Below are positions 16,107 to 31,985 of a stretch of 40,246 bases of DNA, in pieces. Made by a program: the position numbers and the translations under genes. Numbering within the stretch: the first letter of the stretch is position 1; each line of letters begins with the position of its first letter. Source of the stretch: Candidatus Dojkabacteria bacterium. Lineage in GTDB: Bacteria; Patescibacteriota; Dojkabacteria; SC72. Where the stretch lies: contig JAXGWV010000003.1 in assembly GCA_040773125.1 (NCBI GenBank), positions 1 through 40,246 of the forward strand, written 5' to 3'. The notes beneath the pieces were generated by a model. It worked only from the letters and a program-made list of their open reading frames with translations. It had not been told where the DNA came from and ran no database searches.

Positions 16107-18791
16107 TTATTTTACTACTTTTATAAATATTCCTTCCTCTTGATTAATCTTTAATGAATCTCCAAAGATATAGTTACTTTCATCTTTGAATGTGTAATCA
16201 AAGAGACCTTTTTCTTTCTGCCATTGTCCTATCTGTTTAATTTTATTGAATTCTAAATTTTTTAATATATCTACAGAAGTAGTGCCTTTTCCGTCAAATA
16301 CAAAAGAGGGTACTAAGTTCCATCCTGCGGATTCAAGGATATTAGATGGAGAGATTCTGTAGCCTTTTACTGAGAATTCTGTTTCGTGTAAAGAAGAAAC
16401 CATGTACGATTTGCCCGATTTAAGGGAGAAATCATTTCCTTTTATACTTCCCTCTTCATATTTAACAACATGTACCCATTGTCCACTTTGATATTCTCCC
16501 ACGGCTATTACCCTTTTATCTGATATATTTATTAAGTCATAAGCACTTTTAGGAACTAGTGGATTATCAACATCAATTACTTCAAGAGGGCTTATAAAGC
16601 TAATTCCTTCCCTAATTACATATTTAGTACTCTCCATATGACAATTTTCAGCACTAATATCTGAGCGTATTACACCAGAGCACTCATAAGGCATTCTCAT
16701 TGAAAGAGAATTGTTGTAGTAACAACATACACTTTCAGTTTTGATAACTTTTTGATCGGTAGTGCAAGTAAATCCGTTTTTGGCATCCTTTTGAACCGTT
16801 TTGTTATTCCAATAGCAGATACATCCTTTTGGATTTCTACAGTACAAATCTTTATCTGTAACTTCAAGAATGGTTTTTTCCTCAGGAGGAGGAGTAGGAC
16901 CTTGTTCGGTACATACAAGTCCACATTCTACATCTTTAAAGTAATTTTCTGGTTTAATTGTTCCCTTAAAACATTCACATCCCCCAACATCTTTACAGGT
17001 TTCCCCTACCTTAATATCAGACTCCCCTGGGATGTTATCGTTTCCAGTACATTGAATACTGGGGTCTGGTGTAGGGTTAGGGCTTGGGTTCGGATTTGGA
17101 TTTGGGTTTGGTGTAGGGTTTTGTTCGGTACATACAAGTCCACACATTACATCTTTAAGGTAATTTTCTGGTTTAATTGTTCCTTTAAAACATTCGCATC
17201 CACCGACATCTTTACAAGTTTCTCCTACCTTAATATCAGACTCTCCAGGGATGTTGTCATTCCCAGTACATGGAACATTAGGATCTGGTTCCGGTTCTGG
17301 GTTGGTGTCCGACTTCCATTTGATAGTACATTTACTATCTGAAAAGGCCTTATTCTGTAAATGATAGGCATCACAAGTTTGAACACTTCTTGTTGAGCGG
17401 CATTGAGTATCTTTGATGTAACAAAGTGGGTCATTTTTACATTTCTCTTCTGATGTAAACATCCCTTCTCTTGCACAAGATTGGTATTTTTTAGTAGTTT
17501 TTTCACATACATTATTATTTGGGTTAATGTACCAACAGTAAGAGCCATCTTCAGGTGGCTGTGGATTAGTTCCTGAAGGATTTCCATTACAATCTCTATA
17601 CACACTGTTTGTAACTTGTTTGGATCTATCGCAGGCACTAGAACTCTTTGAAACATTCCATGGCCAACTTGGAAGAGTACCACCAGTTAGCCAGTTGTAA
17701 TAATTTCGAATTTCAGTGATATATGCTTTCCCATGTGCAATATTTTCATCATTACAGTACCCTCTTGCATACTTTGTAGCCCATCTCTCTTCTTCCGAGA
17801 TACCTTTGTCTGTGCAGTACCCTGAGATATAGTCGTCAGCCATTTGTACTGAAATCAATCGCTCCAATTGTTTTGTAAAATCTCTGCTTGGCACTCCACC
17901 TCCATTTATACCGAAATCTTGAACATTAGAATATTTAGCATACATACTTCCTGCTGATTCATGGACCCACAATGTTATTGGAAGTGCAGGATTTACTCCG
18001 GCTTCTATAGATTGACAATATACATCACTGTAACACTCTTGTGCATAGTGTCCTTTACAGCCTCCAATTAATCGATCAAGTAAGCTTTGTGTTTGGCTCT
18101 TAGTTGGAAGATATTGAGTATTGGTTATTGATATATTAGTTTTACAATTTGCTCCACTTTCTGCATATACAGGAGAGATAATCCCAAACAAGCTGGCCTC
18201 TAACTCATCTTGAAGAATAGCAGATGGAATAAACCGTGCATACTCAGTAACAGTATATCCACTACCTTTCAAATCTAATGCCCAAGTTCCATGGTAACTT
18301 GTGTAAACCATATACTTTTTCCCACCATTTTCTATCAAAATGAAATTACCTTTTTCTGATGTCCCTGTTTTTATATTGGGTAATTCTACTTTTGTGTTGT
18401 ATTCTTCAGTAGTAAATTCTAAATCAAAATCCCATTTCTGTTTTGGGGATTGAATACGAAATGTATATGTAGTGTCAGGGCGGAGTTGAGATAGAGTGGC
18501 TTCATAGAAGTAATTATCTTCTTTCATATTTTTGTAGAGGTTAGAATCCATCACTGAAATGTAAGGCATGTTTCTTTCTTTCTCTTTGTAAGAGAGAATA
18601 CTGTAAACACCCTCATTGTTTTTCCAATATATTGTTGCACCTGAAGATCCAATGTTTGTTACAACAATATCTGTGGGTTTTTCTTTGAGGATTTCAAAAA
18701 GCTTGTAATTTTGTACATAAAGCCAGGATGATGCAAAGAGAAGTACTAATGCAAATACAAACTTTAGTAAAAATATGTTCTTTTTCTTCAT
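16107..18791 (-). CDS. Large Cys-rich secreted/surface protein: FN3-like N-terminus, lysozyme-like domain, duplicated Cys module, Pro linkers
   Basis: Signal/TM helix; LRPDTTYTFRI; GVNPALPITLWVHES; PEPEP/PNPNP linkers; many cysteines. Confidence 0.8.
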   Translation of the reverse strand: MKKKNIFLLKFVFALVLLFASSWLYVQNYKLFEILKEKPTDIVVTNIGSSGATIYWKNNEGVYSILSYKEKERNMPYISVMDSNLYKNMKEDNYFYEATLSQLRPDTTYTFRIQSPKQKWDFDLEFTTEEYNTKVELPNIKTGTSEKGNFILIENGGKKYMVYTSYHGTWALDLKGSGYTVTEYARFIPSAILQDELEASLFGIISPVYAESGANCKTNISITNTQYLPTKSQTQSLLDRLIGGCKGHYAQECYSDVYCQSIEAGVNPALPITLWVHESAGSMYAKYSNVQDFGINGGGVPSRDFTKQLERLISVQMADDYISGYCTDKGISEEERWATKYARGYCNDENIAHGKAYITEIRNYYNWLTGGTLPSWPWNVSKSSSACDRSKQVTNSVYRDCNGNPSGTNPQPPEDGSYCWYINPNNNVCEKTTKKYQSCAREGMFTSEEKCKNDPLCYIKDTQCRSTRSVQTCDAYHLQNKAFSDSKCTIKWKSDTNPEPEPDPNVPCTGNDNIPGESDIKVGETCKDVGGCECFKGTIKPENYLKDVMCGLVCTEQNPTPNPNPNPNPSPNPTPDPSIQCTGNDNIPGESDIKVGETCKDVGGCECFKGTIKPENYFKDVECGLVCTEQGPTPPPEEKTILEVTDKDLYCRNPKGCICYWNNKTVQKDAKNGFTCTTDQKVIKTESVCCYYNNSLSMRMPYECSGVIRSDISAENCHMESTKYVIREGISFISPLEVIDVDNPLVPKSAYDLINISDKRVIAVGEYQSGQWVHVVKYEEGSIKGNDFSLKSGKSYMVSSLHETEFSVKGYRISPSNILESAGWNLVPSFVFDGKGTTSVDILKNLEFNKIKQIGQWQKEKGLFDYTFKDESNYIFGDSLKINQEEGIFIKVVK
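16902..17270. repeat. Two 150-bp intragenic direct repeats (16902-17051, 17121-17270) encoding a 50-aa six-Cys module
   Basis: CTGNDNIPGESDIKVGETCKDVGGCECFKGTIKPENY(F/L)KDV(E/M)CGLVCTEQ occurs twice. Confidence 0.95.
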
Positions 18792-18832
18792 TGCTGATTA
18801 ATAATAGCAGATTCAGTTATTTGTGTATATCT

Positions 18833-19417
18833 TTAATGAGATTCTAAATCAGAGAAGTCTCTTAACTCCTCCCATTTTTCTTCAAACTCATCTCGAGATT
18901 TAGCCTCTTCTACAAATTTATCGTATTGAGAATGAGAATTTATTCTTCTGTAATATTTAATTGGACACCAGTATCTTTCAGTTCTCGCACCAATTTCAGT
19001 ACAGAATCGAAAAAGATTGTTTACATAGCTACAGTATATGCAATTAAATTTTTCCATAGGATTGAGTAAACTTAATAGCTTTCTATCGTATACAAAGTAT
19101 TCGCTTTGTTTGACAGTTGGTATTCCGTAGAGTCTAAAACAAACTTGTTGGTATATTTGGACAGAGATATGAAGGATTACAGAGGGGATTATCATTGAAT
19201 ATATAAAGGGCATACTTAATAAATATTTCCAATTGAATTTTACTTTTGGAAACTTAATTCGTTTAACAATATTCTCTTCTTCAAGTATTTTATTAATATT
19301 TTCATCAAAAGTAGTACTAATTTTCTCTTTTAATTCTGTAAGTTTTATATATGCATCATTGTTTTTGGAGATTTCATTAATGTTCTCTTTTATCTTTTCA
19401 AGTAGGTTTTCTTTCAT
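18833..19417 (-). CDS. Conserved hypothetical membrane protein with CxxC
   Basis: Hydrophobic stretch then NCIYCSYVN and RTERYWCPIK. Confidence 0.75.
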   Translation of the reverse strand: MKENLLEKIKENINEISKNNDAYIKLTELKEKISTTFDENINKILEEENIVKRIKFPKVKFNWKYLLSMPFIYSMIIPSVILHISVQIYQQVCFRLYGIPTVKQSEYFVYDRKLLSLLNPMEKFNCIYCSYVNNLFRFCTEIGARTERYWCPIKYYRRINSHSQYDKFVEEAKSRDEFEEKWEELRDFSDLESH

Positions 19418-19525
19418 ATTAGTAATGTAAAAATTATTAGTTTATGCAAGGTATTATAGACTTTAATTGAAGATTTTACGATGTATATGTTTAATATCCA
19501 CCCAATTATCTAATATAATGTGTAT

Positions 19526-20257
19526 ATGGATGTTATTTATACAATTGATAGGGAGAAGGATATGAGTATGGTCTATACTATGCTTAAATCTGATGATCTT
19601 TCTGATAATTTGCAAAGAACAAAAAGAATGGGTATTAGTAGGCAATTGTTTAATAAGATAGCCGAGAGTAGCTCATATAATGAAGTAGAAAATGAAATTA
19701 ATGAACTTTACAATACAAAACTTTTAAATGACAAAGAACTACTTCTCTCTAAAACAAAACTATATCAGAGTAATTGGAATTTAATAAATGATATTTTCGA
19801 ACAAGAAACTGAAAGAGTAGTAGGAATGAAATGGAAATATGAAAAATACTATGTGATAGTATCATTGTTTCATCCTGGTGTTAGTAATATGTTGGGAGAC
19901 ACAGTATATCTCTGGATTTATGATGATTTAGATATCCATTTAAGGATAGCTGCTCATGAGTTACTAATGACCCATTTATGGCAATTCTTTTATAAAAACT
20001 TTCCAGAGGAGGATATTAATAATAATTGGAATAAATATTGGTCGGTAAATGAAATAACAACGACATTTATTTTAGGATTAGATAGTAAATTAAATAATCT
20101 ATGGTCAGATAGGATGAAGGGATACAAAAACTTTTTACAAAATTATCCTCAATTAAAAGAAGGAAGGGATTTATTAGTAAACAAGTATAAGAAGAGAAGT
20201 AGCTTTAAAGACTTTATTGATTATAGTCTACCAATGTTTACAACTCCGCGTATATGA
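19526..20257 (+). CDS. Hypothetical protein with degenerate HExxH-like motif; stop codon lies inside repeat R1
   Basis: IAAHELLMTH; TATAAT 6 nt before ATG 19526. Confidence 0.65.
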   Translation: MDVIYTIDREKDMSMVYTMLKSDDLSDNLQRTKRMGISRQLFNKIAESSSYNEVENEINELYNTKLLNDKELLLSKTKLYQSNWNLINDIFEQETERVVGMKWKYEKYYVIVSLFHPGVSNMLGDTVYLWIYDDLDIHLRIAAHELLMTHLWQFFYKNFPEEDINNNWNKYWSVNEITTTFILGLDSKLNNLWSDRMKGYKNFLQNYPQLKEGRDLLVNKYKKRSSFKDFIDYSLPMFTTPRI

Positions 20258-20324
20258 CATATTCCTTAACCTGAAGTTGGATTATGGAATTAATATATTC
20301 AAAATAGATTCGTTGATATATAAT
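20244..20324 (+). repeat. att-like module R1
   Basis: CTCCGCGTATATGACATATTCCTTAACC; first 7 nt identical to the tRNA-Asn 3' end (31914-31920); TATAAT at offset +75. Confidence 0.85.
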
Positions 20325-20331
20325 GCTAAAT

Positions 20332-20871
20332 ATGGAAATAGAAAAATTAGAATTAATTGATTTGCCAAAGACTGACGAATTACAAGTTACTACGAGGTTA
20401 TTTCCTATACCAAGTGCTATGGAAGATGGAAAGATACTAATACAAGAGATGAAAATAAATGGGAAGCTTAGCCCTGATATAGCTCTAATTGACGCTTCAG
20501 TTAATACTCCTGTCCAGTATTATGATGGAGTAAGTAAAATAACAGATATTTTTTACTCTACAACTGACAATAGACCAGTTGGTGTTATTTTAATGTCTCC
20601 GGAAGGAGAAATATCTTTGAAAGTATATAATCCCAAGACAGATGGTGGTCCTAGAGGATATTCAGTGACCAAGGGATGGACTATGCAAACAATTATTCCA
20701 GAAGGGACAACTTTAAGGTTCTTTGATTATCACTCTCCTAAGGGGTATGCAGAAAAGGAAGGGGATAAAATGTATGGGGAAACTGTAGTATCTACGGTAA
20801 CAGATGAAAAGGTATTAGAGAAATTTAAAGGAGCAGAAAAAGAGTTGTTAGATTATATGAAAAAGCTTTGA
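20332..20871 (+). CDS. Hypothetical protein (cassette 1 cargo)
   Basis: ~180-aa ORF; ATG 7 nt after the TATAAT of R1. Confidence 0.7.
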   Translation: MEIEKLELIDLPKTDELQVTTRLFPIPSAMEDGKILIQEMKINGKLSPDIALIDASVNTPVQYYDGVSKITDIFYSTTDNRPVGVILMSPEGEISLKVYNPKTDGGPRGYSVTKGWTMQTIIPEGTTLRFFDYHSPKGYAEKEGDKMYGETVVSTVTDEKVLEKFKGAEKELLDYMKKL

Positions 20872-20879
20872 GGAAAAAA

Positions 20880-20960
20880 CTTCTTGTATATGACATATTT
20901 CTGGACCTTAGAATATTTGTTAGCCTGAACTCTCAAGAGAATGACAAATTATTGTATAAT
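20880..20960 (+). repeat. att-like module R2
   Basis: CTTCTTGTATATGACATATTTCTGGACC preceded by an A-run; TATAAT at offset +75. Confidence 0.85.
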
Positions 20961-20989
20961 CTTTAATAAAATGTTATTACCTTACCAAT

Positions 20990-21670
20990 ATGACAAAACC
21001 CTTCCCAGCTGATGAAAGTAATTATATATTTACAGAGGGTATAGATTATTCAAAGACATCCGCAAATTCAATATGGGGAGATGAGGATATTTCTACCCAG
21101 AGTATGTTAAAGAAATTGGTTAAATCTGATAGCAAGTGGGTTAATCTTGCTTCGGGTGATGGAAGATACAACTGCTTGATTGCAAATATTGCAGGTGAGG
21201 TTACAGATGTAGATATTGATGAAGGCGCTTTAGAAAAACTTTTTTCTAATACTCCAGAGAATATTAGGAGTAAGCTTGTATTAAAATCATTTAATATTGT
21301 TAAGAAATTCCCTTTAGAAAGTAGTGCATATGATGGTTTATTTAGCTCTGGTACTCTTTATCTTTTTCCAGATGATGTATTTATGAATATTGCTAAAGAG
21401 ATATCAAGGATATTGAAGGTAGGAGGGAATATCGCATTAGAGTGGGCTATAAATATTAAAAGGATTTCTCCAACAGGAGAACCAGTTATCTTTGGTACGG
21501 AGCCTTTATATAATAGGGAGAGAGCAAGTAATGTTATACAGAAGGCTTTTCCAAATTTTAAAGTTAAGTTTATAGATGGAGAAAAGGTGTATTCTGATGA
21601 ATGTGAAGCCAACCCTCCATATCATTTTTACTGTGATACATTATTAATAGTGGGGGAAAAAATTCAATAA
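20990..21670 (+). CDS. Class I SAM-dependent methyltransferase (cassette 2 cargo)
   Basis: VNLASGDGR motif I, VDID, FPLESSAYDG, EISRILKVGG. Confidence 0.85.
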   Translation: MTKPFPADESNYIFTEGIDYSKTSANSIWGDEDISTQSMLKKLVKSDSKWVNLASGDGRYNCLIANIAGEVTDVDIDEGALEKLFSNTPENIRSKLVLKSFNIVKKFPLESSAYDGLFSSGTLYLFPDDVFMNIAKEISRILKVGGNIALEWAINIKRISPTGEPVIFGTEPLYNRERASNVIQKAFPNFKVKFIDGEKVYSDECEANPPYHFYCDTLLIVGEKIQ

Positions 21671-21673
21671 AAA

Positions 21674-21709
21674 CTCCCCGTATATGGCATATTCCTGAAC
21701 TTTAAGTTC
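21674..21709 (+). repeat. att-like module R3
   Basis: CTCCCCGTATATGGCATATTCCTGAAC, 3 nt after the methyltransferase stop. Confidence 0.85.
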
Positions 21710-21712
21710 TCT

Positions 21713-23017
21713 TTACCAAAGGGGGTTTTGTTCGTATATTGATTTTGTGGAGGGAGAGAGTACATTAAGAAATATATTTCTTGGTTCCTCTTCTCTTACT
21801 ACATTCCAACAAGAAAGAAGGATAGAAGCTTGGTTTGGAAAAATTTGGTCTCTTTGTATTTCTCCTGTATGAGTATTTACTGTGTCACCATCTCCAAAGA
21901 ATGGGTGAGTTAAACTTGGGAATTCCTGGTGGAGGCGTTTTAATGCATTAAGTGTATCTTGTGGATATACAATTCCCATATTTATTAGGGCTGAGATTGT
22001 TACAATAGGTTGAGGAATATATGGATCTGTAGATTCTCCTGTTTGTGGAACTCTGTATTCATAATATCTTCCATCTGGTCCCAATCCTGCAGAATATCCA
22101 TAGTGTCCATAGTTGTGTTGTTCTCCATACTCTCTTTGTAGTTGTATTGTACTTTTTATTGTTTCCTCCCACTGAGGACTAAATTTATCTTCTGGGATTA
22201 TTAGGGTTGGCCATCCTAGTGCAAAGTATTCTCCATCCCATGTACGTCTTCCTTTTCGTTGTTTTGAATCTTTAAAGAAACTATTTTCTGTTCGCCTGTT
22301 TATTAACTTACTCATTTCATGTAATATCTCATCTTCGCATAATAGATAGGCGATTCGTGCTTCTGAGAGAACATCATATTGCCAAGGTTCAAAACATTTG
22401 TCATTTATATTGTAGCATCCATTAAAAAACCCAGTTGAATGGTCAAACATAAAAGGTAGATCCATTTTATTGAGGTAAGTTTCAATAGAGTCAGAATATT
22501 CAGGAAATTGTACACCTGTCATTTTACTAAAAGCTATTAACCATGCCATGTCTACAGTAGAAATTTGTTGTTTTATTTTTATTTCTGTATTTGGCCACTG
22601 TTTTAGTATTGTTCCTGTTGATGGTTGTATAGAGTTAACAAATAGACCCTTATCTTCTCTTGTTTTAATAAAGATTTCAGGATCTTCTGTCATTTTTATA
22701 ATTGTAGTTATAGTTTTTCCTAATCTTTCATATGTTTCTTGTTCTGAAATAAAGCCCATTGAATATGCCCCACCTATAGAAGCTAAGAGAAACCCTATAT
22801 TTGTAGGACTAGTTTTATCTATTTTAGAAACTTCCCCCGTAGGGATACCATCATAAAGATGATGATGTAATTGATCTGAAGGGAGGCCTGTATCATTGTA
22901 TGTCATTTCACTAATGCTGTTCCAAGCCATCTTCGCATATTGAAGATATTCCTCTTTTATTTCAGGTGGGAGAGTTTCTATTACTTCTTTATCGTATATA
23001 GGTGATTCTAGACTCAT
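21713..23017 (-). CDS. DUF3131/glycoamylase-like glycoside hydrolase related to beta-1,2-glucan enzymes (cassette 3 cargo)
   Basis: TGLPSD, KTSPTNIG, ISTVDMAWL, YDVLSEARI motifs. Confidence 0.7.
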   Translation of the reverse strand: MSLESPIYDKEVIETLPPEIKEEYLQYAKMAWNSISEMTYNDTGLPSDQLHHHLYDGIPTGEVSKIDKTSPTNIGFLLASIGGAYSMGFISEQETYERLGKTITTIIKMTEDPEIFIKTREDKGLFVNSIQPSTGTILKQWPNTEIKIKQQISTVDMAWLIAFSKMTGVQFPEYSDSIETYLNKMDLPFMFDHSTGFFNGCYNINDKCFEPWQYDVLSEARIAYLLCEDEILHEMSKLINRRTENSFFKDSKQRKGRRTWDGEYFALGWPTLIIPEDKFSPQWEETIKSTIQLQREYGEQHNYGHYGYSAGLGPDGRYYEYRVPQTGESTDPYIPQPIVTISALINMGIVYPQDTLNALKRLHQEFPSLTHPFFGDGDTVNTHTGEIQRDQIFPNQASILLSCWNVVREEEPRNIFLNVLSPSTKSIYEQNPLW

Positions 23018-23078
23018 TATTGGTAATTATAGATGAAAATATAAATTATAGATAGGAAACTTGTGGAGGTTTAAAAAA

Positions 23079-23189
23079 CTCCTTGTACTGAGTATTGTGC
23101 GAACTGAAATAATAACATTGTTGTTGCAAGATGTGGGTAATGAAGAGGTGCAGTCTTTAGTTAGAAATATACTCATTAAAGAGGCTTAA
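23079..23189 (+). other. R4 / putative attL carrying the orphan 3' end of the serine recombinase gene
   Basis: AAAAAA-CTCC-TTGTACTGAGTATTGTGCGAAC; open 36-codon frame LLVLSIVRTEIITLLLQDVGNEEVQSLVRNILIKEA* in register with the recombinase CTC codon. Confidence 0.75.
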
Positions 23190-23267
23190 TAGAACTTTAC
23201 TTTTTTAAGTTAGAGATCCCCTTATATTAGATAGTATATGGGAATATAACTATGTATAACTAGAGTA

Positions 23268-24161
23268 TTAAATACTCATTTCTCCATTGTAAATCTTTTT
23301 GATTAAGTCTTTAGCATATTCTAATTCTTCACCATTGCTTACAAAGACACCTGTGTTTCCTGTCCCCCAGTGTCCTTTGCCTTTGACATCCTTTACATTA
23401 GATTTTGGATTGTCAATATCTTCATAATCTAAAGATAAGTAAACATCTAATTTTTCCTTATTAATTACTATGCAAGCCAAATTCTTAATTGTTTTATATG
23501 CCCAATAATTTTTTAGTTCCTTCTTTTGTATGTCATCACCCAAGTTAAGGATATATTCATCTAACTCTTCAGTATAATCAACAATGTTTTTATTAGCAGT
23601 TTTTAGTTTGTATTCAATTCTGTCATGAGGATACTTGTCACCAGAGATATGTGAACTTCTAGGTTTTTCACTTACTGCTGATGCCAACTGTATCATCAGG
23701 AAGTCGTTTTCAAATAAGGTATATCTAATTAACTCTATGTTTCTATTAATCTGTTTTATAGCATTATCATCATATTTATTGAAATCAGTTGCTATACATA
23801 ATAATCTAGGATTATCCCAATCAATATCTACTTTTGTACCGATTTTCTCTCTACACAGAATATCAAAATCAGCTTTGTGTTCCATGAACCAATCTAGGTA
23901 GAAGAGACCCTGATTAATAACATTGGTGTTAGAGTCTAGTTTGTATTCTATAATTACAGGACAGTTATTTTCATCCAATCCTAGTGTATCTACTCTTCCA
24001 TTATCAATAATATATTCAGAGGCTAAAAATCTTACTCCAAAGAGCTCTTCTAAGTTCTTCTCCACAATATCTTGTATCTGCTTTTCTAACCTTAGGCTTT
24101 TAGCTTTTATCTGTGTACTTTTATTTGTTGGAGAGATATTAAAGAGTTTTATTTCTGACAT
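23268..24161 (-). CDS. NucS/DUF91-like PD-(D/E)xK endonuclease with DUF5655-like C-terminus
   Basis: LEKQIQ..E, GRVDTLGLD, IIEYK, QGLFY; C-terminal GHWGTG. Confidence 0.8.
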   Translation of the reverse strand: MSEIKLFNISPTNKSTQIKAKSLRLEKQIQDIVEKNLEELFGVRFLASEYIIDNGRVDTLGLDENNCPVIIEYKLDSNTNVINQGLFYLDWFMEHKADFDILCREKIGTKVDIDWDNPRLLCIATDFNKYDDNAIKQINRNIELIRYTLFENDFLMIQLASAVSEKPRSSHISGDKYPHDRIEYKLKTANKNIVDYTEELDEYILNLGDDIQKKELKNYWAYKTIKNLACIVINKEKLDVYLSLDYEDIDNPKSNVKDVKGKGHWGTGNTGVFVSNGEELEYAKDLIKKIYNGEMSI

Positions 24162-24348
24162 TTATATCTATTCTTAATTTACATTAATGTTGTAATTATA
24201 TATCATTACTCATATTTATAAAAATAGGCTTAAGATATTAAAACCTATTAAATATAACCATTGCTATATTATTGGAAGGAGTTAGACTTAAAAAATTCAT
24301 TAATATGAAGTATACTAGCAATGTAATTACACGAAGGAATGTAAAGAT

Positions 24349-26928
24349 ATGGCCAAAGAAGCTCAAGCAAGAATTAAAATTAATGAACTGTTAACTGCTT
24401 CAGGTTGGAGATTACTTGATGACCCAGAAAAAGGGAGAGCTAATGTTTCTTTAGAGAGTAATGTAAAGATTGAAAATAATCCAGGGGACAATTTTGAAAA
24501 TGTTGAAACTAGAAATGGATTTGTAGACTATCTCTTGTATGATGCAAATAACTATCCAATATGTGTCTTAGAAGCAAAATCAGAAGATAGACATCCTTTA
24601 GATGGTAAAGAACAGGCAAGAGACTATGCTAACTCCTTAGGTTCAAATGTAAGGTACATAATACTTTCTAATGGAAACATGCACTTCCTTTGGGATATGA
24701 AGCTAGGAAATCCTACTTCCATATCTCATTTTCCAACACTAGAATCATTAGTATCCTCAAAAGATTTTGTACCAGATAAAAATAGGTTAGTTAATACACA
24801 GGTTGGAAGTGATTACATAGCTCTTACTCAAGATCCTGATTACAAGCTTGATCCTAGGTGGAATACAGAAGAAGGCAGAAATCAGATGATTGAAAGAGAA
24901 GGATTGAGATTTCTAAGACCATATCAGTTAAATGCAATTATAACTGTTCAAAAAGCTGTAGCAGAAGATAAGAATAGATTTTTGATGGAAATGGCAACAG
25001 GTACAGGTAAGACCTTGCTATCTGCAGCCCTGATTAAACTCTTTCTTAAGACTAAAAATGCTAGAAGAGTACTCTTTCTTGTAGATAGAATTGAATTAGA
25101 AAATCAAGCAAAAAGGAACTTTGATGCATATTTAAAACCTGACTTCACAACAGTTGTTTACAAGGAAGCTAGGGATGAGTGGAAGAAAGCAGAAATAGTT
25201 GTAACAACAATACAGAGTATCTCTTCAAACAACAAATACCTTAGGCTCTTCTCTCCAAATGACTTTGATTTAATTATCTCTGATGAGGCACATAGGTCTA
25301 TCTCTGGAAACAGTAGAGTTATCTTTGAGTACTTCATAGGATACAAGCTTGGTTTAACTGCTACCCCTAAGGACTATCTTAAAAAGGTTAATCAAGAAGA
25401 TTTAGCTGAACAGGACCCAAGAGAACTAGAAAGAAGAATACTTCTATCTACTTACAAAACTTTTGGATGCGAAAGTGGGGAACCAACATTTAGATATAGT
25501 CTTGTAGATGGTGTAAGAGATGGCTTTTTAGTTAATCCTAGAACAATAGATTGTAGAACAGAGGTTACAACTCAATTACTTTCAGAGGAAGGTTTTGTTA
25601 TGACACAAGATCCAGATTCAGAAGAGGGAGAATATATTAGTACTGATGAGCAAGGAAACCAAGTGGTATATAAAGCAAGAGACTTTGAAAAAAAATTCTT
25701 TAGTGAAGAGACAAATAGAAAGTTTGTAGAAGCCTTTATGCAAAATGCTCAAAGAGATCCAATATCTGGGGAGATTGGTAAATCAATAATTTTTTGTGTC
25801 AGTCAGAGACATGCATCAAAGATTACAAATCTACTTAATGAATATGCTATGCAAATGTATCCAGATAAATACCAGTCAGACTTTGCCTTACAGATAACCT
25901 CAAATGTACAAGATGCTCAGCTTTATTCAGTACAGTTTGCTAATAATAATCTAAGAGGGCTATCAAAGTTTCTTGATGGATACAAATCAAGTAAGACCAG
26001 AGTATGTGTAACTGTTGGTATGATGACAACAGGATATGATTGCGAGGACCTATTAAATGTAGCTCTTCTTAGGCCAATATTTTCTCCTACAGATTTTGTA
26101 CAGATAAAAGGTAGAGGTACAAGAAGATTCAGATTCAGATATTCACAAAGAGATGGTATGGCAGTTAATGAAATTGTAAAAGATAAGAAGTATTTTAAAC
26201 TCTTTGATTTCTTCGCTAACTGTGAATACTTTGAAGAAGAGTATCCATATGATGAGATATTACCGTTACCAAAACAGAGAAAAGGAACTACAGCAGATCC
26301 TCGTGGTCCATTTGGACCTATAGGAGGAAAAGATTCTGAAGGTATCTATGGTGGAACTGATGTAATAACGGAATTTAATGAAATAGAAATAGATGAAAAT
26401 GGTATGAGAATTGATAGAGAGCTTTACTCAAGTAAATTTGAGGAGAAGCTTAAAGAAGTGTATACAGAGATTCCAGAGTTTAAAGAGGCTGTAGATACTA
26501 ACGACTATGAGACAGCTCAGTATGTTGTTACATCTCAACTCTTTGATAAACCAGAGGAGTATTACAATATGGATAGATTAAGAGAGAGTTACAAGAGTGA
26601 TAGAAGAATATTCTTATCAGATATTTTAGAGAAGGTCTTTAAAGGAAAGGCATTCAAAACAAAGAATGATTTAGCAGAGGAAGATTTCCAAAACTACTTG
26701 GTAGTTAATAATGTTCCTGCTGAAAACTTCTATAATGTAAAAGAGTTCTTTAAACTATATGTTGCTGATGAGACTTTTAGAAGGGATATAAATACGAATG
26801 AAATAAATAAATATGCAAATGATCCTAAACTTTTTGAAGTAATAAATAAATTGGGGAAGGAGAATATCCAGTATGTTACAGACTATGTAAAGGACAATGT
26901 TCAAATAAATAAATATTACAGCCAATAA
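24349..26928 (+). CDS. hsdR: Type I restriction enzyme R subunit
   Basis: VDYLL..VLEAK nuclease motif, LRPYQ, MATGTGKT, DEAH, LTATP, TTGYD, QIKGRGTR. Confidence 0.93.
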   Translation: MAKEAQARIKINELLTASGWRLLDDPEKGRANVSLESNVKIENNPGDNFENVETRNGFVDYLLYDANNYPICVLEAKSEDRHPLDGKEQARDYANSLGSNVRYIILSNGNMHFLWDMKLGNPTSISHFPTLESLVSSKDFVPDKNRLVNTQVGSDYIALTQDPDYKLDPRWNTEEGRNQMIEREGLRFLRPYQLNAIITVQKAVAEDKNRFLMEMATGTGKTLLSAALIKLFLKTKNARRVLFLVDRIELENQAKRNFDAYLKPDFTTVVYKEARDEWKKAEIVVTTIQSISSNNKYLRLFSPNDFDLIISDEAHRSISGNSRVIFEYFIGYKLGLTATPKDYLKKVNQEDLAEQDPRELERRILLSTYKTFGCESGEPTFRYSLVDGVRDGFLVNPRTIDCRTEVTTQLLSEEGFVMTQDPDSEEGEYISTDEQGNQVVYKARDFEKKFFSEETNRKFVEAFMQNAQRDPISGEIGKSIIFCVSQRHASKITNLLNEYAMQMYPDKYQSDFALQITSNVQDAQLYSVQFANNNLRGLSKFLDGYKSSKTRVCVTVGMMTTGYDCEDLLNVALLRPIFSPTDFVQIKGRGTRRFRFRYSQRDGMAVNEIVKDKKYFKLFDFFANCEYFEEEYPYDEILPLPKQRKGTTADPRGPFGPIGGKDSEGIYGGTDVITEFNEIEIDENGMRIDRELYSSKFEEKLKEVYTEIPEFKEAVDTNDYETAQYVVTSQLFDKPEEYYNMDRLRESYKSDRRIFLSDILEKVFKGKAFKTKNDLAEEDFQNYLVVNNVPAENFYNVKEFFKLYVADETFRRDINTNEINKYANDPKLFEVINKLGKENIQYVTDYVKDNVQINKYYSQ

Positions 26929-26930
26929 TT

Positions 26931-29378
26931 ATGTTAAATGGAGATACAAAAAGAAAAATAAAAAATGCAAGAGATATTCTAGTAGGGAAGATTCCTGTTC
27001 CTACAGCACAAGTAGAACAGATTACTCTTGCACTTATGTATAAGTTCATGAGTGATATGGATGAACAAGCCAAGAAGTTAGGAGATAAGACTAGCTTCTT
27101 TATGGGAGAGTATGAAAAATATTCATGGGATAAGATAACAGACACCTCTTTGTCAGCATATGATAGGGTGGCTTTGTATTCTGAAGGATTAGAGAAGATG
27201 AATAACAATCCCAATGTACCACAGCTGTTTAGAGACATATTTAAAGGGGCTTTCTTGCCCTTTAAAGACCCAGAAACATTAAAGCTGTTCTTAGACCAGA
27301 TAAATGAAATTGAGTATACTCAAAGTGAAGATTTAGGTGATGCATATGAGTACTTATTATCTGTAATGGGCTCTCAGGGCGATGCAGGGCAATTCAGGAC
27401 CCCTAGACACATCATAGACTTCATAGTAGATATTGTAGATCCTAAGAAGGAGGACAAGATACTAGATCCTGCCTGTGGTACTGCTGGATTCCTTATCTCT
27501 GCATTCAAACATATTCTAAAACACAATACCACTAAAGATTCTAAGATTCTGGGAGATGCACTTTCTCCTATGGATAGAAGAAACTTAACAAAGAATTTTG
27601 TAGGCTATGATATTTCTCCTGAGATGAGAAGATTATCATTGGTGAATATGTATTTACATCAGTTCCCAGACCCACAGGTATATGAATATGATACCTTAAC
27701 TAGTACAGATCATTGGGATGAAGATTTTGATTGTATATTAGCTAATCCTCCTTTTATGACTCCTAAAGGTGGTATAAGACCTCACAAGAGATTTGCAATA
27801 CAGGCAAATAGGTCAGAAGTCTTATTTGTAGATTATATAATGGAACATCTTAGTACTTCTGGCAAAGCAGGTATTATTGTTCCAGAGGGTATTATTTTTC
27901 AATCTTCTAATGCATACAAGAATTTAAGAAAGTTACTTGTAGAAGATAATTATCTTTGGGGTGTAGTATCACTTCCTCAGGGAGTATTTAACCCATATGC
28001 GGGTGTTAAGACTAGTGTATTACTTTTAGACAAGAATATTGCCAAGAAGACTGATAATATCTTGTTTGTAAATGTGGAAAATGATGGTTTTGATTTAGGT
28101 GCACAGAGAAAGGAGAATGGGAAGAATGATTTACCTAAGATTTTAGATGGTTTGAAGAAGTACAAGAAATGGATATTGAATGATGAAGAAATCAAGGAAG
28201 ACGAATTATTTAATACCCAAATCATTGGAAAAAGTAGGATTAAGGAGAGTGGAGATTACAATTTAAATGGTTATAGGTATCAAAATAGCGAAAGAGGTAT
28301 TTATGTGAAGGGAAAATGGGAGAGTGTCTTGTTAAGAGATATTCTTGAAGATGTGAGATATACTCACAAGATCAAAAAAAGTGAGTATCTACCAGAGGGG
28401 GAATATCCAATAATTGATCAATCAAGTAATTTTATAGCAGGCTACTGTGATAATAAAGATTTTCTTTACAATGTAACCAAACCAGTTGTTATATTTGGTG
28501 ATCATACTAGAGAGCTTAAGTATGTTGATTTTGATTTTGTATTAGGTGCTGATGGTGTAAAGATTCTTCAATTTAAAGAAGTTGCTTCAGCAAAGTATTT
28601 ATACTATGTGCTAAAAAACACTCCAATCAAGAGTTTGGGTTATTCCCGTCATTTCAAGGAATTAGTCAGGTTAGAAATTCCTCTTCCCCCAATAGAAGAA
28701 CAAAAGAAAATAGTAGAAGAACTTGATAGATACCAAAGGGTTATAGATGGAGCAAGAATGGTTATAGATAATTGGAAGCCTGAGATAGAGATAAACCCAG
28801 AGTGGAAAATAATTAAATTAAAAGAGGTATGTGCACTTGTAAGGGGAGTAACTTATTCAAAGGATGATGAAGTTGAGAATGGAGGTAAAATAGTGCTTAG
28901 GGCAAACAATATTGATTTAATGGGGGGGCTTAATCTTACTGACTTAAAATATATTAAGAAAGAGCTAAAAGAAACTCAGAAGCTCAAAAAGGGAGATATA
29001 TTTATTTGTATGTCTAGTGGAAGTAAATCTCATATAGGCAAAGTTGCTTTCATAGACAATGATACAGACTATTATCTTGGAGGATTTATGGGTTGTGTAA
29101 GAGCATATGATAATATAAATGCAAAATATCTTTATTACATACTGAATTCACAGGCATTCAACAAATATTTAAGAGATCAGATTAGTGGTGTGAATATAAA
29201 TAATATAAATCAGGGAATTTTTTATAATTTTGGCATACCTCTTCCTTCTATAGAGGAACAAGAGGATATTGTAGAGAAGTTATCCAAGCTGGAAGATTCC
29301 GTTTCAAAGAATAAAGAGATAATCAATTTCTTTGAAAAGAAATCTGCAGATGTAATTTCAAAAATTTTCAATGGTTAA
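26931..29378 (+). CDS. hsdM: Fused type I N6-adenine methyltransferase and specificity subunit (HsdM-HsdS)
   Basis: GQFRTP, DPACGTAGFL, ANPPF, then two TRDs each ending in IPLP(P/S)IEEQ..IV. Confidence 0.92.
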   Translation: MLNGDTKRKIKNARDILVGKIPVPTAQVEQITLALMYKFMSDMDEQAKKLGDKTSFFMGEYEKYSWDKITDTSLSAYDRVALYSEGLEKMNNNPNVPQLFRDIFKGAFLPFKDPETLKLFLDQINEIEYTQSEDLGDAYEYLLSVMGSQGDAGQFRTPRHIIDFIVDIVDPKKEDKILDPACGTAGFLISAFKHILKHNTTKDSKILGDALSPMDRRNLTKNFVGYDISPEMRRLSLVNMYLHQFPDPQVYEYDTLTSTDHWDEDFDCILANPPFMTPKGGIRPHKRFAIQANRSEVLFVDYIMEHLSTSGKAGIIVPEGIIFQSSNAYKNLRKLLVEDNYLWGVVSLPQGVFNPYAGVKTSVLLLDKNIAKKTDNILFVNVENDGFDLGAQRKENGKNDLPKILDGLKKYKKWILNDEEIKEDELFNTQIIGKSRIKESGDYNLNGYRYQNSERGIYVKGKWESVLLRDILEDVRYTHKIKKSEYLPEGEYPIIDQSSNFIAGYCDNKDFLYNVTKPVVIFGDHTRELKYVDFDFVLGADGVKILQFKEVASAKYLYYVLKNTPIKSLGYSRHFKELVRLEIPLPPIEEQKKIVEELDRYQRVIDGARMVIDNWKPEIEINPEWKIIKLKEVCALVRGVTYSKDDEVENGGKIVLRANNIDLMGGLNLTDLKYIKKELKETQKLKKGDIFICMSSGSKSHIGKVAFIDNDTDYYLGGFMGCVRAYDNINAKYLYYILNSQAFNKYLRDQISGVNINNINQGIFYNFGIPLPSIEEQEDIVEKLSKLEDSVSKNKEIINFFEKKSADVISKIFNG

Positions 29379-30024
29379 AAATATACAAAAGCAAAAAACA
29401 TTAAAAGATTTTATTAAAGAGACAACATTTAAACCTGACTCTACAAGAGATGATAATTCCTTCTTTAGTGCATATTATGGACCGAAACCATATGGAGAAT
29501 CTTTAGATGATATTTTCAAAATAATTAGAGATATTTATGATAACAATAAGAAACCAGATGACTTATTTTGGGACTTTACTACAAACATTTTACATACATA
29601 TATGGAGTTTGAAGATCACATTGCTTTAAAGATTTCATCAATAGAGAAATACTTTGATCCAGACCCTCCTCTAAGTGCTATATTAGAGTTAGAATCTTCA
29701 ATTTCCCCAATTTACTATACAGGAAGTAAATGTGCCAAATATCTACTTGCAAACTCAGGAGGCAAACTAACGAATGATGATATAGAGTTTCTAGCAAAAT
29801 ACAAAGGGACAAGAAATAAGATTTTTGAACACAACTTAGATCCAGAGGAATATCCTTTTGTGGTAAGGGTCTTTCATTTTTCAGTATTTTCAACAGACTC
29901 AGAATTAGAGATAGAGTTGATTAACTCTAAAAATGAAAAAGAAGAAAGAGGTTTTATTGACTATTATGATGATAATTACAAGTTAATAGAAATTTGTATT
30001 AGATATTTGAAGTCAATTAAGTAA
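29371..30024 (+). CDS. Hypothetical protein with HEPN-like RxxxxxH motif
   Basis: RNKIFEH at residues 148-154; start overlaps the hsdMS end. Confidence 0.6.
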   Translation: MVKNIQKQKTLKDFIKETTFKPDSTRDDNSFFSAYYGPKPYGESLDDIFKIIRDIYDNNKKPDDLFWDFTTNILHTYMEFEDHIALKISSIEKYFDPDPPLSAILELESSISPIYYTGSKCAKYLLANSGGKLTNDDIEFLAKYKGTRNKIFEHNLDPEEYPFVVRVFHFSVFSTDSELEIELINSKNEKEERGFIDYYDDNYKLIEICIRYLKSIK

Positions 30025-30083
30025 GAAAAATACCTAAAAAACTAGGGAAAAACTTGGAAAAACATTGATATTTTTAACAAAAA

Positions 30084-30296
30084 ATGGCAAAAACATACAC
30101 AAATCTAAAGAAAAACCAATCAACATCTGAACTAAGGAAATTCATATCCTCTATCATAGACATAGCTACTAGACCACAAATATTCTCTCAATGGATTAAA
30201 GAAAAGAAGTCCTGGAGACACATTCTTAATGTACCTGAAAAGATAAAAGTAAGAGAGGAATTTGAAATAAAGAAGATTCCAAAAGAAGAAAAATAG
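30084..30296 (+). CDS. Small basic protein upstream of the recombinase
   Basis: 70-aa Lys-rich ORF; position only. Confidence 0.5.
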   Translation: MAKTYTNLKKNQSTSELRKFISSIIDIATRPQIFSQWIKEKKSWRHILNVPEKIKVREEFEIKKIPKEEK

Positions 30297-30324
30297 TTTT
30301 TCGGCGCTTATAGGGGATTGAAAC
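30296..30324 (+). repeat. Solitary CRISPR-repeat-like sequence
   Basis: GTTTTTCGGCGCTTATAGGGGATTGAAAC: GTTT start and ATTGAAAC end; single copy. Confidence 0.4.
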
Positions 30325-30365
30325 AACAACATTCTTTAGCATAAAAATAGCTAAAAACAACAAAA

Positions 30366-31952
30366 ATGGAACAAAATACCTCAAAAATTAAAGTATTTGC
30401 ATACCTTAGAAAATCTACTAAGCAAGAGAGAGAAGGTACACCTGAGAAACAACCCAACTCCCTTAACTATCAAAGAAGAGTAGTTAAAGAGATTGCAGAG
30501 AGGAACAATCTAAAGATTGTTAACCAATTTGAGGATAAAGAGTCAGGATACAAAGCATATGTAAGGAAAGACTTTAATAGAATGTGTGAGCTACTAGATG
30601 AACAGGGCTCAGAAGGTGAAATTAAAGGTATAGTTTGTAGTGAACACAACAGATTAGCAAGAAACTTTGGAGATGGAGGCAGGATACTCTGGTATTTACA
30701 GAATGGAGAGATAGAAGCTGTGTATACCCATGACAAAATATTCTCTAACAGTAGCAGTGATCAAATGATGTTGGCTATTAATTTTGCAATGGCTAAGAAC
30801 TCTAGTGATGAAACAAGCTATAGAATGAAGCAAACATGGAAGAGTAAAGCTATTGCAGGAATGCCACCAAACCAAAGAATAGTTGGATATAAATATGTTG
30901 GAAACAAAGGTCAGAAAGTATGGGTTAAAGACCCCAAAACAGCCCCATTGATTGTAAAAGTATTTGAAACATATGCAACTGGAGAATATACGATAGAAGA
31001 GTTGGCAAAATATGCTGCTTCAATAGGACTTGTTAATAAAAGAAATGATAATAAACCATATGGAGAAAATACAGTAAGAGAATGGTTATCAAAGAAAGAA
31101 TATATTTGTATCTTTGAGTATGAAGGGGAAAGACATAAAGGAATGTATCCTAGGATGATAAGTGATGATTTATTCTACAAAGTTCAAGATGTTCTTCTAC
31201 TTAGATCTCATAAGAGGGGAAAAACCAAAAACATGTATGCATACTCTCCTAAACTTATTAAGTGTGGTAAGTGTGGTGAATATATGACAGGAGACATTCA
31301 AAAGGGAATAGTGTATTACAAATGTCCTCACAGAAAGGAGCCATGTAAGAGTAATCCTAATGAAAGGCTTCCTCACCTTAAAGAAACTTTTGTTGATGAA
31401 AGTATTATGAAGAAGTTAAAACAGATAGAAATATCAGAAGAGAAATGGAAAGAACTCTCTGCATTAGTTAAAGCAAATTATCAATATGAGGTAGCTCAAC
31501 ACGAGGAGGATATTAGAGAGATGAGAACTAAGATAGGTTATGAAGAAGGTTTTAAGAAACAGTATTCAAAAGCTATATCAGAGCTAAGGATTAAAGGTAC
31601 ATTGACTAAGGAAGAAGAAGAGGAATTGAAAGGCTATCAAGATTTAATATTAGATTGTAACAAAACTATTGAGTTGTATCAGGAAGCAATAATCAAAGCT
31701 AAGGAAATTATGAATGAGATTCCATTTGAAATGGAAGGGTTCCTAGAGTCTTTGAAGGTAGCTAGTGCAAGATTTAACCAAGGTACACCTGCTAATAAAA
31801 GGGTGATTGTAGAGACCCTTTGTGCGAACTTAATATGGGATGGTAAAAATATTGTCTGGAATTGGAAAAACAAGTATAAGAAACTAATAAATCAGGAAGA
31901 AGACATAGATTGGCTCCGCGACCAGGACTCGAACCTGGAACCAAACGGTTAA
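30366..31952 (+). CDS. Large serine recombinase (resolvase + recombinase + zinc ribbon + coiled coil)
   Basis: YLRKST catalytic motif, ESG, NRLARN, CGKCG...YYKC..C; last 13 codons (WLRDQDSNLEPNG) are antisense tRNA. Confidence 0.93.
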   Translation: MEQNTSKIKVFAYLRKSTKQEREGTPEKQPNSLNYQRRVVKEIAERNNLKIVNQFEDKESGYKAYVRKDFNRMCELLDEQGSEGEIKGIVCSEHNRLARNFGDGGRILWYLQNGEIEAVYTHDKIFSNSSSDQMMLAINFAMAKNSSDETSYRMKQTWKSKAIAGMPPNQRIVGYKYVGNKGQKVWVKDPKTAPLIVKVFETYATGEYTIEELAKYAASIGLVNKRNDNKPYGENTVREWLSKKEYICIFEYEGERHKGMYPRMISDDLFYKVQDVLLLRSHKRGKTKNMYAYSPKLIKCGKCGEYMTGDIQKGIVYYKCPHRKEPCKSNPNERLPHLKETFVDESIMKKLKQIEISEEKWKELSALVKANYQYEVAQHEEDIREMRTKIGYEEGFKKQYSKAISELRIKGTLTKEEEEELKGYQDLILDCNKTIELYQEAIIKAKEIMNEIPFEMEGFLESLKVASARFNQGTPANKRVIVETLCANLIWDGKNIVWNWKNKYKKLINQEEDIDWLRDQDSNLEPNG

Positions 31953-31985
31953 CAGCCGTTCGCTCTACCATTGAGCTATCGCGGA
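31911..31985 (-). tRNA. tRNA-Asn (GUU) with CCA
   Basis: TCCGCGA...AACGG-CTGTTAA-CCGTT...CCAGG-TTCGAGT-CCTGG-TCGCGGA-G-CCA; TATAAT upstream at 31998-32003. Confidence 0.97.

Follow-up and report, generated by a model that had tools for sequence, protein, structure and literature searches.

Direct repeats near a tRNA-Asn gene of a Dojkabacteria genome are probably attL-type scars of large serine recombinase elements

In a genome of Candidatus Dojkabacteria, three successive plus-strand genes (A, B and C) are each followed directly at the 3' end by a copy of the same short sequence, and two of the copies carry a promoter-like TATAAT at an identical distance. This arrangement raises the question of what kind of element the repeats (R1, R2 and R3) represent. 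The stretch that we analysed, referred to as the window, comprises 40,246 nucleotides (assembly GCA_040773125.1, contig JAXGWV010000003.1, positions 1 to 40,246 of the forward strand). An initial annotation of this DNA had regarded the repeats as recombination arms of gene cassettes with a built-in promoter. We propose instead, with a probability of roughly 0.8, that R1-R3 are attL-type scars of elements encoding large serine recombinases (LSRs), which inserted at the 3' end of a tRNA-Asn gene.

R1-R3 are direct repeats with 73-86% identity to R1, and they are the sole copies across the 674-kb, 70-contig genome (G000), also according to an nhmmer profile search. Several observations of the initial annotation held up. 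The TATAAT hexamers of R1 and R2 (coordinates in Table 1) lie exactly 75 nt from the core starts at 20244 and 20880, respectively, and are read as Tyr-Asn in a frame that stays open through the repeat and that we call the tail. Likewise, the palindrome ATATG-R-CATAT is present in all three repeats and in almost every related copy; in R1 it appears as ATATGACATAT within the 23 nt that follow the tetranucleotide CTCC. It is also correct that a convergent gene cuts R3 short: its likeness to other modules, i.e. repeats with their tails, stops ~37 nt past the core start, and the stop codon of its frame overlaps the 3' end of that gene, which has a TATAAT of its own on the minus strand (23031-23026), 8 nt before the ATG.

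The relationship between the repeats and the tRNA-Asn gene emerges when four types of junction are compared. In the attP form, found in a metagenome contig (L112), an integrase end is followed by TGG, CTCC and the conserved 23 nt. The attB form, as seen in tRNA-Asn trailers, consists of an A-run, CTCC and the tRNA-Asn body. R1-R3 and locus L041 have the attL form, in which the A-run and CTCC precede the conserved 23 nt, and the attR form, with integrase end, TGG, CTCC and tRNA body, occurs in the window and in genome G123. CTCC is the only stretch common to the four forms, which were drawn from different genomes rather than from a single site before and after insertion. Since the C/G difference directly after CTCC follows the right arm, the exchange falls within CTCC, and the 4-nt overlap would be compatible with a 2-bp staggered crossover. 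As nothing else is shared, the invariant 23 nt after CTCC, including the palindrome, are most simply interpreted as a P' half-site. Half-sites of serine integrases are about 23 nt long.

The codons of the tail could be traced to an integrase gene. Contig L112 contains an ATG-started ORF (open reading frame) of 521 aa that encodes an LSR and reads through the core into a 36-residue tail (PVYDIFLNLRIRV... up to the stop). Over residues 1-485 this ORF is 68% identical to a 514-aa LSR of G123, which has Resolvase, Recombinase and Zn_ribbon_recom domains. The two proteins align precisely up to Trp-Leu, from where the G123 protein continues with RDQDSNLEPNG into the 3' half of a tRNA-Asn. The same alternative endings are found in LSR remnants: one in L049, 84% identical to G123 residues 437-485, ends in HIWL and proceeds with PIYDIFLNIKF, and its counterpart in L058 ends in HDWL followed by RDQDSNLEPNG and a stop. 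All three of three close database relatives end in WLR..., and about one quarter of the module left arms read (A/T)TGGCTCC after an Ile codon, giving ...IWLP VYDIF. In a set of viral contigs the integrase-type junction had no match. LSR reading frames that end in either the tail or the tRNA indicate that, in the attP state, the integrase has the tail as its C-terminus.

G123 also provides a complete element of 6.9 kb, in which a module, a homologue of gene B, a HAD-like gene, an XRE/ImmA pair, a 370-aa ORF, a C5 methylase with R.HinP1I, the LSR and the tRNA-Asn half follow each other. Gene B is thus the first gene after attL in an intact element. Beyond the tRNA-Asn half lie a glutaredoxin-like gene and then a hibernation factor gene. 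The intact integrase of this genome (L107, G123:C3, ~1450-1500, minus strand) thus lies next to just the 3' half of a tRNA-Asn, with similarity ending in the anticodon loop. This partial tRNA points to earlier rearrangements or to another type of element that uses this tRNA.

The tail frame bears the marks of a protein-coding sequence. Of 38 distinct copies, 33 have no stop in this frame over 24 codons; four of the other frames are open in 0-3 of the 38, and one antisense frame in 20. In the 33 de-duplicated copies, single-base differences within codons 7-18 amount to 473, 386 and 1099 at codon positions 1, 2 and 3, and the synonymous to non-synonymous count is 735:1223 in the tail frame versus 568:1582 and 359:1660 in the other two frames. 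The R1 tail is homologous to tails preceding gene B homologues in L017, L057, L041 and L033, and these tails retain Ser and Leu through unrelated codons. The consensus reads LPVYDIFLNLKFNFxIDxxxIxxLL, with the stop after 25-36 codons. Given its conservation at the protein level, the tail probably matters for the enzyme of the free element.

Two other origins of the tail were considered. It does not appear to be the C-terminus of an upstream gene: in the genome copies it never lies within a long upstream ORF, only 3-34 codons being open upstream (open frames in the other set span 21-109 aa), and the genes that precede it do not terminate in a common frame. The idea of an independent small gene, or of a tail entered by a +1 shift at CCC-C, was rejected as well: several copies have TTG or ATG in the frame neighbouring the tail, but in 12 of 33 neither frame offers a start codon. 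The latter reading was abandoned after the integrase link emerged. Protein databases held no long or near-length protein sharing tail words, only ORFs of 31-47 aa. A tail profile run against 1.84 billion representatives gave four matches, namely ORFs of 31-47 aa and one 143-aa repeat protein, which is weak evidence because each cluster is represented by one member. The 143-aa protein (P0005) contains four tandem copies of a 21-residue unit resembling the tail motif (..ALIYDIQLDLKLTVSINVG..), and may be a translated array of related attachment-site repeats.

These data can be accommodated in the following model. In the free attP form, the LSR gene would span the crossover: after Trp-Leu (TGG CTC C) it would pass through the 23-nt P' half-site, whose palindrome would form part of the sequence bound by the recombinase, and terminate 25-36 codons later. 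Integration at CTCC would join the LSR gene to the tRNA gene, and the protein would then end in WLRDQDSNLEPNG. At the same time, the former C-terminal codons, now without a start, would be stranded at the far end of the element and fused to the A-rich tRNA trailer. The gene on the P' side of attP would begin right after the integrase stop, with a -10 box that overlaps the last integrase codons, which would explain why TATAAT is located at a roughly constant distance from the core.

Such a position for a -10 box is in line with the genome as a whole. Among 580 putative starts of this genome (first ATGs of long ORFs), TATAAT-like hexamers peak 5-9 nt before the ATG (129 starts, 46 of them with the exact hexamer), and there is no Shine-Dalgarno peak. 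From these two patterns, a -10 box just before the ATG looks like the norm, and the data suggest that most genes are leaderless. Gene B and its homologues have TATAAT 5-7 nt before the ATG. An automated count of -10-to-ATG gaps is unreliable because the first-ATG rule misplaces starts (20323 instead of 20332); the starts of genes A, B and C are supported by homology. A scan for sigma-70-type promoters gave 14 sites versus 14.1 expected, and no qualifying -35 hexamer for the TATAAT of R1 or R2. The single possible RNA run covers only 22827-23078.

The offset from the core had been described as fixed. Of the 33 de-duplicated modules, 13 have an exact TATAAT 65-82 nt downstream of the core, where the frequency of the hexamer in the whole genome (0.00053 per position per strand) would lead one to expect ~0.3. 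The offsets are 65, 71 (the commonest, five cases), 74 (two), 75, 80, 81 (two) and 82. Hence the hexamer recurs in other copies, but its distance is approximate rather than fixed, being kept within about +/-8 nt because it reflects the conserved length of the tail. In nine of the 13 cases TATAAT is in frame as Tyr-Asn, and in the other four it overlaps the stop codon. A looser definition of the -10 box is matched by 17 of 33 modules at +65 to +89, a number not clearly above that in the AT-rich DNA just downstream. Judging from its placement, TATAAT is the predicted -10 box of the first gene after the integrase. The proposal that it would express captured genes at once has to be given up, since the box follows the genome-wide 5-9 nt rule and would belong to the element's own first gene after int. 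Similarly, the notion of an ~80-bp multipurpose module survives in part: ~90 bp do accommodate a site for recombination, the coding tail and, directly ahead of the following gene, a -10 box, but this is not an integron-like capture module, as the tail corresponds to the C-terminus of an LSR.

The tRNA-Asn connection recurs in related genomes. In a scan for an exact 18-mer using one genome per species, 32 loci were found, 19 of which carry the extended module (four are nested views of one Saccharibacteria-labelled contig). The metagenome-assembled genomes with extended modules are labelled Dojkabacteria, Saccharibacteria, Anaerolineaceae, 'bacterium' and 'uncultured bacterium'. The remaining 13 loci match in the 18-mer only, stem from unrelated phyla and look like chance matches. 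When up to three mismatches were permitted, the core gave 42 matches in 34 of 221 genomes of the class, G000 included (reversed control pattern: 6); within the family of G000, apparently Ca. Dojkabacteria, 29 of 99 genomes carry it. A single copy is the usual number; two genomes carry two copies, G000 carries three and another genome five. On its left the module begins sharply ~8-10 nt ahead of the core; ~27 near-invariant bases follow, after which the sequence diverges with one frame kept open. Wherever flanks were long enough, it lies 0.5-2 kb from a tRNA-Asn gene. In 13 of 34 loci scanned, several of which overlap one genomic place, tRNA-Asn(GTT) was detected; as we read the coordinates, every one of these tRNA genes lies on the opposite strand to the module and downstream of it. 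The tRNA trailers consist of an A-run plus CTCCGCGACC, the sequence that most modules have as their left arm. An integrase or its remnant adjoins the tRNA in the window, G123, L029 and L058. We also noted a unit of an XRE-type helix-turn-helix protein and an ImmA/IrrE-like peptidase after the module in L005, L040, L058, L063 and L065, and before it in L049. In L058 and L049, where flanks were examined, this unit includes a ~115-aa C-terminal integrase remnant, truncated alike in both.

It is important to note that a number of findings weigh against the attL interpretation of R1-R3. This genome has no cognate LSR for them; the sole intact LSR of the window belongs to an island with a different P' arm. 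Only one full-length ORF combining integrase and tail was found (L112), and its contig could be a free circle or a tandem junction. The LSR of G123 adjoins no more than a partial tRNA-Asn, and ARAGORN finds no tRNA there. R2, R3 and all five junctions of L017 have left arms of the host type (A-run), while simple successive integration into attR predicts integrase-type arms (TGG) at internal junctions. Arms of that type are present at internal junctions of L049 and L114, and L006 keeps KIWL. A single-gene unit of G180 has on either side a similar 12-13-nt stretch that includes CTCC, AAGGAA(A)CT.CC, and canonical recombination between attP and attB does not yield such two-sided flanks. Finally, four metagenome runs contained no excision, deletion or circle joints; contigs from X13 (19853-21442) and X14 (18279-20475) span the repeats in the arrangement of the window. 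The arrays with A-run arms could result from homologous recombination between modules, mobilisation of units that lack int, or decay.

Extending the attL model, the tRNA-Asn end might serve as a platform on which a serine integrase captures genes serially. Each unit would bring a P' arm, a tail remnant and its own promoter, and the exchanged C-terminus may act as a switch of directionality. Because units end in an A-run plus CTCC, a usable attB would be restored after each insertion, so that older one-gene scars could stack. We consider this extension doubtful.

A different view holds that homologous recombination between promoter-bearing repeats shuffles the genes, with no dedicated recombinase acting on R1-R3 today. 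Such a process is documented for PeSL cassettes of T4-type phages, i.e. promoter/stem-loop units that form mini-circles (PMC2839356). In both systems a conserved short promoter unit flanks shuffled small genes. Furthermore, near-identity between the directly oriented modules extends over 40-60 bp, and identical host-type arms (~17 nt at two L017 junctions) arise more easily this way than through attP x attB. The repeats of the window differ from the phage units: they have no stem-loop component, a terminator scan finds nothing at them, and they are chromosomal, linked to a tRNA and apparently derived from an integrase att site. Recombination of this type leaves the origin of the module, the tRNA-Asn link and the integrase frame without explanation, and deletion or circle joints were absent from the four metagenome runs. 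As the sole cause it seems improbable to us, and it may be an addition to the LSR model and not a rival of it.

The integron-like platform of the initial annotation, in which the ~80-bp module would combine the recombination site of a cassette with a promoter of its own, fares worse. At first sight the locus resembles such a system. The same module separates single-gene units, genes B, C and A vary in order and neighbours across genomes, the cargo (GNAT, NUDIX, methyltransferase, cupin) is of the kind found in cassette arrays, and the A-run plus CTCC at the end of the units seems to recreate a site of the host type beside the tRNA. However, single strands of R1-R3 form no hairpin in either orientation (z -0.74 to +0.78 versus shuffled sequences), RNAalifold gives zero consensus pairs for 28 modules, and no Rfam family matches at E <= 1. 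Pfam scans of the window ORFs detected no tyrosine recombinase, only a serine recombinase 10 kb away, and the neighbour of the array is a conserved 194-aa membrane protein and not IntI. Moreover, cargo can oppose the module strand (EamA and cupin in L017, NUDIX in L004), the -10 box travels with the downstream gene and obeys the genome-wide rule, and the tail is the C-terminus of an LSR gene. A cassette att arm is therefore very improbable, and the site is better described as the crossover plus P' arm of an LSR attP.

The suggestion that a transcription factor uses the palindrome as an operator or activator site to control the downstream promoter is hardly credible. The centre of the 5-1-5 palindrome does fall ~74 nt before the predicted start, and the core is better conserved than neighbouring proteins. 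However, a genome usually has only one to few sites, the genes downstream of them are unrelated, no regulator gene is conserved in the vicinity, and some modules lack a downstream gene on their own strand. In addition, conservation begins sharply at the crossover and spans ~23 nt, which places the palindrome inside the conserved half-site. A dif/Xer-type site with arrays of integrative mobile elements exploiting Xer, considered because most genomes hold one copy, received no support from G180. On the single contig of that genome, dnaA is located at 44 kb, the minimum of the cumulative GC skew at ~55 kb and its maximum at ~405 kb on a broad plateau, and the module at 338 kb.

The LSR model thus replaces an integron in the Candidate Phyla Radiation (CPR) with candidate attP and attB sites of a serine-integrase family in an uncultured phylum. 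In common with known LSR att sites, those described here are short, with few common crossover bases, a conserved half-site of ~23 nt and no arm-type sites, and the enzymes share the Resolvase, Recombinase and zinc-ribbon domains (PF00239, PF07508 and PF13408 were tested). What sets them apart is the target, a tRNA gene 3' end, and the integrase ORF that crosses attP, with its last 25-36 residues swapped for 13 residues encoded by the tRNA antisense strand. Integron attC arrays likewise consist of single genes with a repeated site in direct orientation; here, in contrast, there is no folded site and no IntI, promoters reside in the units and not in the platform, and the site lies within a recombinase ORF. 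In the result listings of a literature search we found no description of an attP-crossing ORF for serine integrases, nor in CPR bacteria.

A serine-integrase gene that crosses its own attP and has its C-terminus swapped on integration would formally resemble the 'suicidal' archaeal tyrosine integrases of SSV1 type. These carry attP in their own gene and have been framed as an all-in-one module including directionality control (PMC8371274). The recombination site within the integrase ORF and the alteration of the gene by integration are common to both, but the tyrosine recombinase gene is split in two, whereas the serine recombinase keeps 485 residues and changes in the tail alone. A further parallel is offered by the tycheposons of Prochlorococcus, tRNA-anchored islands where newcomers push older elements inward and integrase fragments and att remnants are scattered, with a minority using large serine recombinases (10.1101/2020.12.28.424599). 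Accretion beside a tRNA gene, the tRNA-proximal integrase and remnants in the island are alike. The differences are that the repeat studied here combines 4-11 nt of the tRNA end with the P' arm of the element and is not a partial tRNA, and that the host is a CPR bacterium of ~0.7 Mb. The model would also explain the variable region of these ~0.7 Mb genomes, in which restriction-modification and accessory genes are exchanged.

Table 1. Coordinates of the repeats and of neighbouring features in the window; site and promoter assignments are predictions.
Feature	Position	Strand	Description
R1 repeat	20242-20278		direct repeat
R2 repeat	20878-20914		direct repeat
R3 repeat	21672-21708		direct repeat
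R1, probable attL-type site	20240-20270	+	A-rich left arm, overlap CTCC 20244-20247, putative P' half-site 20248-20270 (23 nt)
R1 tail	20244-20360	+	start-less predicted integrase C-terminal remnant LRVYDIFLNLKLDYGINIFKIDSLIYNAKYGNRKIRIN (stop), overlapping gene B start
R2, probable attL-type site	20876-20906	+	A-run, degenerate overlap CTTC 20880-20883, putative P' half-site 20884-20906
R2 tail	20880-20966	+	LLVYDIFLDLRIFVSLNSQENDKLLYNL (stop); includes TATAAT 20955-20960 as Tyr-Asn
R3	21670-21742	+	A-run, CTCC 21674-21677, putative P' half-site 21678-21700, shortened tail to stop 21740-21742
Gene A	19526-20257 (ORF also from 19520)	+	accessory gene; TATAAT 19514-19519, 6 nt before ATG
TATAAT, likely -10 box of gene B	20319-20324	+	7 nt before ATG 20332
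Gene B	20332-20871	+	ATG 20332 homology-supported; ORF calling starts at 20323
Gene C	20990-21670	+	SAM-dependent methyltransferase; TATAAT 29 nt upstream of ATG
Convergent gene	21713-23017	-	glucoamylase/DUF3131-like, adjoins R3
attL of resident island	23061-23189	+	A-run + CTCC at about 23075-23083, then second type of P' arm
Integrated element	23079-31910 (~8.8 kb)	+	at tRNA-Asn(GTT): NucS-like nuclease, type I restriction-modification (HsdR, fused HsdM-S), two small ORFs, LSR
Large serine recombinase, 528 aa	30366-31952	+	ends ...EEDIDWLRDQDSNLEPNG (stop); Resolvase, Recombinase, zinc-ribbon domains
tRNA-Asn(GTT), integration target	31911-31985	-	3' end faces array

The window itself harbours a resident island at the tRNA-Asn gene (Table 1). 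The last 13 residues of its LSR after Trp-Leu are encoded by the tRNA-Asn antisense strand (attR). At the opposite end, the attL of the island, at about 23075-23110, has a frame open over 36 codons that represents a different integrase tail, and a similar sequence lies downstream of a gene A homologue in G155. Owing to this different P' arm, action of the window LSR on R1-R3 was rejected. One contig from metagenome run X20 departs from the window at 23078 and continues with letters matching the tRNA-Asn 3' end, which hints at an empty integration site. Just upstream of the integrase, a 70-aa ORF without Pfam match (30084-30296, plus strand) could, from its position, encode a directionality factor or regulator.

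With regard to the genes between the repeats, the gene A ORF enters R1 and ends in ...TTPRI at a TGA within the palindrome. Homologues of gene A occur in just three of 99 genomes of the family. The one in G155 comes after a module, ends before any core and has TATAGT 6 nt before its ATG. In L006, a gene C homologue with 61% identity is preceded at 26 nt by TATAAT and is likewise followed by a core. The region as a whole is syntenic, being bounded at one end by the 194-aa membrane protein or an fn3/phosphatase-like gene and at the other by the hibernation factor gene and SurA-like genes. The 194-aa protein beside the array shares 79% identity with the corresponding protein of another genus and represents a backbone gene flanking the variable region. 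It is encoded at 18833-19417 on the minus strand and has a hydrophobic segment, a Cys-rich C-terminal half and a weak, sub-threshold match to DUF1492.

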